DNA of 36,312 bases from a virus (lineage: Duplodnaviria; Heunggongvirae; Uroviricota; Caudoviricetes): the IMG/VR virus record IMGVR_UViG_2534681604_000004; one strand, written 5' to 3'. The translations under genes were made by a program, and so were the position numbers. Each line of letters starts with the position of its first letter. Position 1 is the stretch's first letter. The notes beneath the pieces were generated by a model, which saw only the letters and a list, made by a program, of their open reading frames with translations, was not told the DNA's origin and searched no databases. Below are positions 20,457-21,660 of this stretch, one piece after another.

Positions 20457-20463
20457 TAAATTT
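20447..20463 (+). promoter_or_regulatory. C1-repressor operator-like site overlapping the dmt stop codon (ATTGCTCTAATAAATTT)
   Basis: 17/17 match to recalled consensus. Confidence 0.6.
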
Positions 20464-20640
20464 ATTAGTGTAATATCGCCTCAATGAATCGTGATTTATA
20501 GAGCGATTTAGCTGTTAGCCGCGACAGGCGCGGCGGCAAGTATGGCGGGGTAGTGACTCCTTCCCCATCATGACGCCGAGTTGCCAGGTTGACCATACGC
20601 CTAAGTGGCAACACCGAAGTGCGTTACGAGCTTCCAGTTT

Positions 20641-20665
20641 GCCCATCTTCGGGTGGGCGTTTTTT
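20641..20665 (+). terminator. rho-independent terminator (GCCCATCTTCGGGTGGGC then GTTTTTT)
   Basis: Stem-loop plus T-run read directly. Confidence 0.65.
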
Positions 20666-21310
20666 CAGGGTTTTCGTCATGGTTAGCGACTTTGCGGCGG
20701 TTTATAAACTGACCATTAAAGTAAATGCAAACGATGATCTGATGATGGTAGCGGCCTAAGAAGCCAGACGCCACGGGGTATGAGTCGTCCCCCGTCAAAA
20801 AATCGACCGCAGAGTGTCCCCGTCTGTGTATTAGGGAACGGGGAGGCACAACAGGTAAGGGTATTTTGCGACGTCGGAGATCGCCGTGCTTGGCAGAGGG
20901 TTCGAATCCCTACGAAGTACCCTTACCGTTGTGATGAAGTGCAGCTCTTTGAAGCAACCAGAAGATAAGCATCTGGCTTCACAACATAAACCGCAGGAAC
21001 GACCAATAAACGGTAGTCCGTATGGAGAACACCCCGTTGAGGAAGAGGCCTGGCCGGAACCGTAACCGGCACTACAACGTTGAGAACACTGGCGTAACGG
21101 GGTCATATCCCAATCTACGAATAAATGTTGCGTTGCAGCGTGACAACCAGTGTTCTCAACATTGTGGTGGATTCGCAGACTGATGCGATAGCTTTCTTGG
21201 ATGTTAGGGAAATGAGGCCTCATTTCTTCCCTTTCGCGAGCGGTGATCGTCCGTAGTCCTAATTGGCTGCACCGTATGCCGGAGATTCAGTACCGGCCAC
21301 CACAACGGCC

Positions 21311-21397
21311 GGAGAGTAGGGAGCATGGTGCTCAAGCGGTCTTGAAAACCGTCCCATTGCGCAAGCGATGATGGTTCGATTCCATTACTCTCCGCCA
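21311..21397 (+). tRNA. tRNA-like gene, class II (long variable arm), predicted anticodon UGA (Ser-like); atypical D-arm
   Basis: Manual fold: 7-bp acceptor GGAGAGT/ACTCTCC, T-arm with TTCGATT loop, anticodon loop CTTGAAA, variable stem with GCAA tetraloop, encoded CCA. Confidence 0.45.
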
Positions 21398-21660
21398 GCG
21401 CAACGTTAAGAGTATTTGGCTAATTAAGCGAATGCCGGAAGCAGAACCGGATCAACAAATGCGTACAGGCGTCATCGCCGCCCAGCCAGCCAAGTGCTCT
21501 TACCATTGCGGTGAATGCGGCTAAGCGCACGCGGGGAAATGGTTATATCAGTCTATTCATTTCTCCTTGTTTCCCCGTCCACGGTGGATAACCAGCCAAA
21601 GGACACCGGGAGGCACCCGGCACCGCAGATTTTTTATTCGTTAAATAATGGAGTGAGAGG

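Follow-up and report, generated by a model that had tools for sequence, protein, structure and literature searches.

Transfer-messenger RNA (tmRNA) is regarded as one unit, composed of a tRNA-like half and a message half, and the known partial forms lack the message. The tmRNA database papers record phage tmRNAs in mycobacteriophages and Bacillus phage G, together with a reduced form in DS6A; the 2025 database update holds 79 phage sequences, and the pipelines start from ARAGORN and Rfam hits (PMC4131195, PMC11915505). A molecule similar to the reduced tmRNA of DS6A inhibits tmRNA (PMC4131195). The DNA analyzed here is a 36,312-nt stretch (IMG/VR record IMGVR_UViG_2534681604_000004; termed the window, and all coordinates are window positions). 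It is a phage-plasmid of the P1/P7/D6 type, as judged by BLAST, annotated P1 features and gene order. Its segment at 20457-21660 is overall a known locus, the ban leader of P1 with tRNA genes, and displays 98.4% identity to P7 (85% covered), 98.1% to D6 and 96% to P1 (BLAST). Within this segment, at positions 20668-20849, is an element that apparently represents an undescribed, widespread tmRNA-derived RNA, constrained both in structure and in encoded peptide and without a tRNA-like domain. The identity and structure of this RNA are well supported, and its function we infer.

The element and its parts, all on the + strand, are:

20668..20849, +, tmRNA-like element consisting of an mRNA-like domain and two pseudoknots, without a tRNA-like domain (from sub-threshold Rfam tmRNA matches, homologues, codon pattern and covariation)
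20670-20676, +, invariant GUUUUCG, followed by a stretch ending in GCGAC at 20686-20690
20690-20694 / 20717-20721, +, helix Pa, CUUUG/CAAAG (UUAUG/CAUAA in other lineages)
20727-20759, +, tag frame GCA AAC GAT GAT CTG ATG ATG GTA GCG GCC TAA, start-less, 10 codons, translated as ANDDLMMVAA*
20773-20778/20790-20795 (S1) and 20784-20787/20804-20807 (S2), +, pseudoknot A (covariation)
20810-20813/20823-20826 (S1) and 20818-20822/20839-20843 (S2), +, pseudoknot B (covariation)

The 5′ part has the order GUUUUCG, 2-17 nt, GCGAC, helix Pa, a resume context of the AUAAAU type, and the resume codon. GUUUUCG and the stretch ending in GCGAC resemble the 5′ half of the tmRNA tRNA-like domain. The phage sequence ANDDLMMVAA has the same length of ten codons as the E. 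coli SsrA tag, ANDENYALAA.

Coding tests were made on 124 copies having the 5′ motif, with 29 distinct frames used for codon-position variability. The GCA frame is exactly 10 codons long in all 124 copies, in contrast to lengths of 2 to 31 codons for the other two frames. In 114 of these copies an in-frame stop is found 8 codons upstream, and the interval has no ATG, GTG or TTG. Across the 29 distinct frames, variability is lowest at second codon positions and highest at third positions, and the peptide follows the pattern A-N-[DE]-[DEN]-x-[MFVY]-[LM]-[AMV]-[AV]-A-stop. Judged from the codon pattern, this signature matches that of a putatively translated tmRNA tag and not that of a small RNA (sRNA) seed.

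The structure downstream of the frame displays a comparable constraint. The last Ala codons pair with the sequence following the stop to form a hairpin with UAA in the loop, and the last codons co-vary (by eye). The H-type pseudoknots show stem variants such as ACGGGG/CCCCGU, GCAAGG/CCUUGU, GUGAGG/CCUCAU and GUCAGGG/CCCUGAU, and the loop-to-downstream pairings vary as GUCG/CGAC, CCGA/UCGG, CCAA/UUGG and CCAG/CUGG. In a 50-sequence alignment, 88.5% of cells are paired vs. 41-49% with the partners slid, and changes on both sides are found in 14 of 26 pairs (115 cells). The covariation score is 0.272 vs. 0.119, and 0.272 is reached by none of 500 shuffles. All four pseudoknot helices hold pairs changed on both sides. 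Because MAFFT misaligns pseudoknots of the P1/N4 type against those of the lambdoid type, the pair counts are conservative. An earlier examination of the window from its sequence alone (the sequence-only reading) had proposed a comparative alignment for covariation, and across these 50 diverse sequences the two pseudoknots in 20668-20849 do show compensatory changes. No clear equivalent of the tmRNA pseudoknot PK1 was found 5′ of the frame, where helix Pa alone is present.

One variant of the element is found at ~2280-2500 of L031, an IMG/VR contig of the P1 type. It has no GUUUUCG/GCGAC 5′ part and no pseudoknot A, and it keeps the tag frame and pseudoknot B. This may be a decaying copy.

A search of Rfam with permissive thresholds shows that 20630-20797 matches tmRNA families only, centred on AUAAAUGCAAACGAUGAU...GCGGCCUAA. 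Six homologues from unrelated phages match only the permuted-tmRNA models, with 26-33 bits on RF04321, which is below threshold. At gathering thresholds, Rfam yielded tRNAs only on 11 related loci. ARAGORN and Rfam, the entry points of the tmRNA database pipelines, both fail on the phage element.

Among the properties of tmRNA, the element has a start-less tag frame that resumes at Ala, pseudoknots (both of them 3′ of the frame) and a stop codon in a hairpin. No conserved T-arm, acceptor 3′ strand or CCA end was found in the element, so that a tRNA-like domain is lacking; the G3-U70 pair (alanine identity) is also absent, as the strand at the acceptor position is GUUUUCG with U at position 3; and Rfam gathering thresholds for tmRNA are not reached. 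The element thus fails membership of the tmRNA family, yet closely resembles its message half.

The surroundings were scanned for a missing tRNA half. Within ±1.5 kb there is no conserved partner for the 5′ strand of the element or for the UUUGCGG region, only upstream arms of neighbouring hairpin modules. A scan for a T-loop with acceptor strand and CCA yielded nothing beyond the usual tRNAs of phages (Ile/Met-CAU, Arg, Ser, Tyr, Asn, Thr), and no Ala-type tRNA was among them.

A one-piece mini-tmRNA fold of 255 nt was also considered. In this fold GGGUUUUCGU is paired with ACGAAG-U-ACCC after the T-arm, in addition to UGCGGCG/CGCCGUG. A T-arm at 20897-20911 is followed by ACGAAGUACCC, which is able to pair with GGGUUUUCGU, and the positions are suggestive. 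The fold was rejected as the primary interpretation because it is confined to the P1 type, is absent in P7-like relatives and is not the minimum-energy fold, a local hairpin being preferred.

An IMG/VR contig, L116, has at 4127-4477 a genuine permuted (two-piece, alpha-type) tmRNA with 121.6 bits on RF01849 and the tag ANDNVASRYALAA; ARAGORN is silent on it. This tmRNA shares the ACCA..AA...AAAUGCAAACGA context of the element (ACCA..AA...AAAU followed by GCAAACGA). It displays a 7-nt acceptor strand and a 13-nt D loop ending in CGAC (GGGGGCG + AACUAGGAUCGAC) where the phage element has GUUUUCG + N(13-14) + CGAC. From this match in layout, the element seems to descend from the coding piece of a tmRNA in which the acceptor strand turned into GUUUUCG, with a vestige of the tRNA-like 5′ half in the form of the 7-nt strand and the D-loop-like stretch ending in CGAC.

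The element is widely distributed. A BLAST search with 20560-20860 yielded 299 phage records. A core of ~175 nt is found with ~70% identity in N4-like Schitoviridae (Bp4, ECBP1, KP8, Pylas), Ackermannviridae (phiEa2809, phiMAM1, Magnus) and Drexlerviridae (CS01); one match was inspected per family, and it is situated in an unannotated gap, usually next to tRNA genes. The invariant motif ACCANNAANNNAAATGCAAACGA is present in at least 120 IMG/VR contigs from unrelated phage families. The element is also found in 660 of 5426 complete E. coli genomes (~12%), at 582 places on plasmids and 140 on chromosomes. The E. coli matches listed carry no feature or are annotated as "hypothetical protein", and no inspected match is annotated as RNA. 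A scan of species-representative genomes gave 39 matches, a few of them enteric and most in unrelated bacteria.

In chromosomal lambdoid prophages the element is in the ~1-kb gap between Q and the holin gene (e.g. the NZ_CP074924-like context), either after a tR′-type terminator or immediately downstream of a TTGACA-17-TAGATT promoter. Often, tRNA-Met(CAU)/tRNA-Arg(UCU) pairs are found with it, and these pairs resemble the ileZ/argN/argO genes of Stx phages. In N4-like phages, odd tRNA-like genes are present directly 3′ of the element: L005 973-1051 (Bp4), L007 ~990-1100 (KP8), L075 and L107. One of these is called as "tRNA-Cys(ACA)", and that of KP8 has ~120 nt, a 7-bp acceptor stem, A73 and an encoded CCA. 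The papers searched showed no earlier account of a tmRNA-like RNA in P1, lambdoid, N4-like or Ackermannviridae phages, only method mentions, and such an absence is not proof of novelty.

The element is part of a larger array. To the left of 20457-21660 is the bifunctional methyltransferase Dmt, with its stop codon at 20454-20456. The Pban promoters overlap an operator, which in turn overlaps this stop codon:

20447..20476, no strand, bivalent C1 operator Op72ab (Obanab) with sites ATTGCTCTAATAAATTT at 20447-20463 and the inverted partner at 20458-20474; identical to the annotated Obanab/P1ban/P2ban of P1

The two 17-bp asymmetric sites ATTGCTCTAATAAATTT overlap in inverted orientation, and 20447-20474 equals Obana/Obanb of P1 exactly. 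An inverted-repeat search picked up the palindrome over the operator at 20445-20476, and the P1ban -10 sequence TAATAT is at 20471-20476. In the P1 record, Op72 (Obanab), P1ban and P2ban likewise span the dmt stop codon. Control of ban by C1 from Op72 is established P1 biology. As 20447-20476 is identical to the P1 operator and promoters, 20457-21660 is therefore the untranslated 5′ leader of the C1-repressed ban operon, whose first open reading frame (ORF) has its ATG at 21661. The leader is built as a chain of RNA modules:

20483..20665, +, promoter-proximal leader RNA of ~180 nt, including the "dicF-like region" of P1 and ending in an intrinsic terminator (stem 20640-20659, U-tract to 20665)
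20846..20861, no strand, 16-nt repeat GCACAACAGGTAAGGG, a deletion junction; found twice in P1, flanking 424 bp, and in one copy in the window
20847..20933, +, module M1, a tRNA-like structure in an extended stem, with outer CACAAC/GUUGUG, inner GGUAAGGGUA/UACCCUUACC, an internal hairpin and a T-arm
20934..21069, +, segment M2, unclassified, beginning GAUGAAGUGCAGC and ending GCCGGAACCGUAACCGGCACUACAAC
21070..21169, +, module M3, a long hairpin with 23-nt arms and, inside them, one hairpin like a T-arm (GGGGUCAUAUCCC) and one further small hairpin
21162..21308, +, domain closed by UUGUGGUGG/CCACCACAA, holding an 18-bp palindrome and a GCCGGAGAUUCAGUACCGGC hairpin
21311..21397, +, tRNA-Ser, anticodon UGA, class II, with long variable arm, G73 and encoded CCA (ARAGORN); the D arm is unusual
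21399..21510, +, module M4, a ~20-bp stem GCAACGUUAAGAGUAUUUGG/CCAAGUGCUCUUACCAUUGC (fold z = -4.0) with a lambda-like core
21507..21627, +, STnc100/PasD-like element (RF02076), closed by UGCGGUG/CACCGCA, directly upstream of the first ORF

All five structural features listed in the sequence-only reading are present, some with corrected coordinates. The terminator, given there as 20641-20665, has an 8-bp G+C-rich stem at 20640-20659 and T6 to 20665. The 10-bp pairing GGTAAGGGTA/TACCCTTACC exists, but its 5′ arm starts at 20854 and not at 20858 (arms 20854-20863 and 20918-20927). The inverted repeat described as 14 bp is also real, but its arms are 23 nt (21070-21092 / 21147-21169, with 54 nt between). 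The perfect 18-bp palindrome GAAATGAGGCCTCATTTC is at 21209-21226, and the 87-nt tRNA-like gene is tRNA-Ser(UGA). The suggestion that the segment holds structured RNAs or protein-binding sites rather than spacer DNA is supported by the C1 operator and Pban at its left edge, the true tRNA and three long stems with z of -4.0 to -5.7. An Rfam search, also proposed there, gives sub-threshold matches in the leader to the tRNA-Sec model, STnc100 and tmRNA families. The element at 20668-20849, the T-arm structure closed by the 10-bp pairing and the kinship with lambdoid leaders had all gone unrecognised.

The terminator of the promoter-proximal RNA is a predicted one, with 5 G-C pairs in its 8-bp stem, a UUCG-type loop and then T6, and it is kept in P1 and P7. 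The 20483-20665 segment is conserved solely in P1-type phages (BLAST). The label "dicF-like" comes from the P1 record; the DicF covariance model gave no match in 20300-23100 even at E<=10 (Rfam), and the label is thus unsupported by that model.

In M1, GGTAAGGGTA/TACCCTTACC is part of 13-nt arms that are 92% complementary and forms the core of a ~21-bp stem. The 91-nt hairpin at 20846-20936 has -41 kcal/mol and z = -5.4, with none of 200 shuffles as good. A canonical T-loop, AGGG-UUCGAAU-CCCU, is at 20897-20911, a few nt upstream of the stem's 3′ arm, and Rfam shows a tmRNA T-arm micro-match at the same positions. Modules homologous to M1 are beside the tmRNA-like element in the lambdoid contigs L016, L038 and L078, and M1 is absent in P7-like relatives. 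The arms of M3 are 91% complementary (fold z = -5.7, 0 of 200 shuffles) and are a compensated variant of the common stem CAACAGGUAAGAGCAYUG / CARUGCUCUUWCCGUUG; the motif GTAACGGGKTCATATCCCAATCTAC recurs in another P1 module. The outline of M2 is like that of STnc100/PasD-type modules of lambdoid leaders, a likeness that is weakly supported (by eye). The closing stem of 21162-21308 is present in both the minimum-energy and the centroid folds, and its outline is as in lambdoid modules. In M4 the core at 21422-21486 (65 nt) shares 97% identity with a part of the lambda late-gene leader, 44866-44930 (BLAST). At 21507-21627 (fold z = -3.0) the STnc100 model RF02076 gives 38.6 bits (E = 3e-6), below its gathering threshold of 47, and covers model positions 31-147 of 206, that is, less than the full model.

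The stems CACAACAGGTAAGAGCATT ... AGTGCTCTTTCCGTTGTG recur across related loci with different inserts, and are also in the lambda late leader just after tR′. Many of the module inserts hold a T-loop hairpin (UUCGANU) against or near the 3′ arm, in the manner of a tRNA. By analogy, it is plausible that the T-loop modules would act as RNase P or RNase Z punctuation. Hartmann et al. (1995) reportedly found that the C4 RNA of P1/P7, a non-tRNA substrate, is processed by RNase P. Some of the leader modules are common to other phages, in the late-gene leaders of lambdoid phages (Q to holin gene) and beside the tRNA genes of N4-like phages and Ackermannviridae.

The modular arms also account for a loss. 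The sequence-only reading had placed the segment where P1 carries tRNA genes. P1, P7 and D6 do have tRNA-Asn and tRNA-Thr between the homologues of 20861 and 20846, and the window has neither. The 424-bp segment of P1 between the 16-nt copies contains a hairpin module, tRNA-Asn and tRNA-Thr. In the alignment with the P1 locus, 20300-20861 matches 1344-1902 and 20846-21185 matches 2326-2665, the BLAST pieces overlapping by 16 nt. The distance from the tag motif to the T-arm module is 142 nt in the window only, vs. 505-675 nt in other P1-type loci having the module, and the tRNA insert is present in every one of the best E. coli plasmid matches. This comparison of sequences shows that tRNA-Asn and tRNA-Thr were lost here by recombination between two copies of the 16-nt module arm.

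The precise loss between two module-arm copies is also what would be expected if the inverted repeats acted mainly as DNA, either as recombination hot spots and module boundaries that shuffle tRNA and sRNA cargo, or as protein-binding sites, with the RNA folds as by-products. The same arms do flank different inserts across phages, P7 has another insert at the place of the T-arm module, and the 18-bp palindrome is perfect (~0.005 expected by chance in 1.2 kb, own arithmetic). The palindrome GAAATGAGGCCTCATTTC is not conserved, as P7 (L002 ~2672-2690) has GAAATGCGGCCGCAAAC with the outer AGGGAA/TTCCCT pairing kept; both palindromes keep an 8-bp palindromic core, GAGGCCTC in the window vs. GCGGCCGC in P7. 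Against a role at the DNA level, the stem of M4 relies on G-U pairs, which exist only in + strand RNA, so that this stem is one of RNA. Compensatory variants are seen in the arms (M3 vs. the consensus), and the inserts are themselves folded and tRNA-like. A function as RNA is compatible with one as DNA and both can hold; as a sufficient explanation of the repeats, the DNA reading is rather unlikely.

We consider the following account, a modular ban leader with a tmRNA-related RNA that keeps the message half, to be on balance probable as a whole, where RNA processing and use as a trans template are what we infer. Upon derepression, transcription would read through the terminator, and RNase P, RNase III or RNase E would cleave the transcripts at the long stems and at the tRNA-like structures, setting free the tRNA(s) and small RNAs. 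The tag frame would be translated, because its peptide features are under selection, and by implication it would serve as a trans-translation template, the tRNA-like partner being provided in trans.

The sole lead to such a partner is a sequence complementarity. GUUUUCG with its lineage-specific flanks (window 20670-20677) is a perfect Watson-Crick complement, over 7-11 nt, of E. coli SsrA nt 96-106 GACGAAAACUA, codons 3-6 of the host tag. The complementarity is found in eight 5′ variant classes (exact-complement count). Extension into the flanks has a mean of ~2.3 extra pairs vs. ~0.7 expected (own arithmetic), where the variant classes are mutually related and the match was noticed post hoc. 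The whole-molecule RNAduplex comparison of the element with SsrA gave global duplexes no better than shuffles. A GGTTTCG seed would match the Salmonella tag sequence, and a scan for this seed yielded one match, which gives no support for host-specific seed covariation. The complementarity suggests either a tether to host tmRNA, by which the phage RNA could be a trans-acting template, or an antisense action.

Several results weigh against this account. In the window the Rfam scores are all below gathering (RF04321 25.7/47; RF01850 16.6/84; RF00023 9.9/47), and ARAGORN shows no tmRNA in the window, P1, P7, D6 or 49 other loci. No T-arm followed by an Ala-type acceptor end was found within ~1 kb, and about half of the scanned loci are devoid of tRNA genes. 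The possible acceptor-like closure of the window is not conserved beyond P1-type phages, and in ~40% of the P1-type loci both it and the T-arm module are missing. The complementarity to SsrA is short and was spotted after the fact. In P1, plating was unimpaired by CRISPRi of the neighbouring trnT, plp, upl, tciABC, trnI and ban (PMC10695390). Some parts of the leader fold no better than shuffles: 20520-20665 (z = -0.4), M2 (z = -0.2, and no Rfam match) and 21162-21308 (z = -0.95).

The same complementarity could indicate that the element is not a template at all, and is instead an antisense regulator or decoy of host trans-translation. Either the seed would pair with the SsrA tag frame (nt 96-106, over its 7-11 nt) or the body of the RNA would titrate tmRNA-binding factors, so that rescue or tagging is damped or altered in lytic growth. 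The lack of a detected tRNA-like domain agrees with this, and DS6A, with a tmRNA that is nearly a tRNA-like domain only, provides a precedent in reverse, as a similar molecule inhibits tmRNA (PMC4131195). An antisense RNA or decoy, however, has no need for an exact ten-codon frame with peptide conservation and coding-like periodicity. The complementarity is brief, and the Salmonella-type variant of the seed was found once only. We regard this alternative as unlikely.

A more specific form of the template reading is that the element rewrites the host rescue tag. GUUUUCG, the putative former acceptor strand, would dock on codons 3-6 of SsrA, and the element would provide a tmRNA message domain in trans without a tRNA-like domain of its own. 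Docking would set the phage GCA AAC GA next to the identical first codons of the host, and after rescue by host tmRNA-SmpB the ribosomes would go on to read the phage frame, adding tags of the (A)ANDDLMMVAA type instead of (A)ANDENYALAA. If true, this would alter the recognition of tagged proteins by SspB and ClpXP. In this specific form the proposal is quite improbable.

The element may also be taken for a decaying, functionless relic of a captured tmRNA coding piece that hitch-hikes in a recombination-prone leader. The absence of a tRNA-like domain, the scores below Rfam thresholds, the L031 variant with its lost 5′ part and pseudoknot A, and the dispensability of the neighbouring P1 genes are in keeping with decay. 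A relic is not expected to keep a frame length invariant in 124 of 124 copies, compensatory changes in four helices, and ~70% identity across at least four unrelated phage families that are both lytic and temperate. This makes the relic very improbable. That the structures are incidental and the DNA encodes minus-strand proteins is extremely improbable: P1 annotates plp (L001 2296-2673) and upl (2674-2865) over homologous DNA and the window has a 130-aa minus-strand ORF at 20831-21223, but this ORF has no Pfam family and crosses module stems and the tRNA-like structure, plp of P1 overlaps trnT by 30 nt, P7 annotates neither ORF and has part of the sequence replaced, and plp and upl are non-essential by CRISPRi (PMC10695390). 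Thus plp is probably not a gene, and the P1 annotations of plp and upl over this region are probably wrong. The statement of the sequence-only reading that there is no convincing ORF is fair for the + strand, and the minus-strand ORF is judged spurious.

The tRNA-Ser(UGA) gene is common to P7 and D6 and is not in P1. The Rfam alignment gives a long variable arm and a T-arm, and the sequence has an ACUCUCC-G-CCA end, as in a class II tRNA-Ser. The Rfam tRNA-Sec model gives 46.6 bits on this gene vs. a gathering threshold of 47. The structure of the tRNA is compatible with an acceptor/T arrangement of 8/4 or 9/4 and a D stem of 4-6 bp. According to the authors of the D6 sequence, tRNAscan-SE assigns no amino acid to it (D6 record). 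Together with ~90 nt downstream (21311-21488) the gene is 83% identical to tRNA-Ser loci of Vequintavirinae, and from this identity the gene and its downstream sequence look like a cassette shared with these phages.

To the right of the leader are, in order, a 78-aa membrane ORF, an SPFH/Band 7 lipoprotein, a tRNA(CAU) and the DnaB-like helicase Ban. At 21661-22705 tciA-tciB-tciC of P1 are swapped for the 78-aa ORF and the 275-aa lipoprotein; the tRNA(CAU) at 22733-22808 and ban follow. Dmt (17169-20456) has 1095 aa vs. 754 aa in P1. It contains an intein-like insert (~17397-18430) with Hint and LAGLIDADG homing-endonuclease domains, situated exactly within the PCQ motif of the C5-methyltransferase (GGTPC/FTAG...VVHN/CQAFS).

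A message half that is conserved, structured and peptide-constrained on its own raises the question of how, or whether, a tag template works in trans. The presence of the element in P1, in lambdoid late leaders by tRNA genes of the Shiga-toxin type, and in lytic N4-like phages and Ackermannviridae points to manipulation by phages of ribosome rescue or of tag-directed proteolysis. It is held by ~12% of complete E. coli genomes, where the inspected matches are unannotated or "hypothetical protein". The shared module stems explain the movement of tRNA genes and sRNAs between phage leaders.

Among known systems, the leader as a whole is most readily compared with the lambda late leader (PR′-6S RNA-tR′ to gene S) and the Q-to-stx/holin leaders of Stx phages (ileZ-argN-argO). 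These have the same module stems, CACAACAGGTAAGAGCATT ... AGTGCTCTTTCCGTTGTG, and are likewise long and untranslated, follow a regulated promoter and a terminator, and house tRNA genes and sRNAs. Unlike lambda, the operon here is the C1-repressed ban operon and not a Q-antiterminated late operon, and lambda has no tmRNA-like element. As in phage tRNA clusters and C4 RNA, tRNA genes and tRNA-like structures with a T-loop are present in one polycistronic transcript, with processing predicted here; unlike tRNA-like processing signals, the "acceptor" stems of the modules have 13-22 bp and no CCA end.

STnc100 and PasD are prophage sRNAs (bioRxiv 10.64898/2026.05.13.724894). The module at 21507-21627 has their closing stem and the CACCGGGAGGCACCCGGCACC 3′ hairpin. 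It differs in that the 5′ third of the model is missing and no terminator follows, the module abutting the ribosome-binding region of the next gene. The Pas sRNAs were also considered as relatives of the tmRNA-like element and rejected; each has a terminator at its end, and their kinship is with the STnc100-like module instead (bioRxiv 10.64898/2026.05.13.724894).

With tmRNA (SsrA and the two-piece coding piece; RF00023, RF01849, RF01850, RF04321) the element shares a start-less frame GCA AAC GA... of 10 codons as in E. coli SsrA, a frame end that is hydrophobic with Ala-Ala/Val-Ala and UAA, and an AUA-containing sequence before the resume codon. The stop codon is in a hairpin with H-type pseudoknots next to it, and the 5′ stretch corresponds to an acceptor strand and D loop ending in CGAC. 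Unlike tmRNA, the element has no T-arm, acceptor 3′ strand, CCA end or G3-U70; both its pseudoknots are after the frame, with no clear PK1; its helix after CGAC closes locally and not with a distant 3′ strand; and it is below every Rfam tmRNA threshold and is not called by ARAGORN. The mini-tmRNA of mycobacteriophage DS6A is also a phage-borne partial tmRNA in which one half is kept (PMC4131195; PMC11915505). In DS6A it is the tRNA-like half that is retained, without a tag frame; in the element described here it is the message half, without a tRNA-like half.

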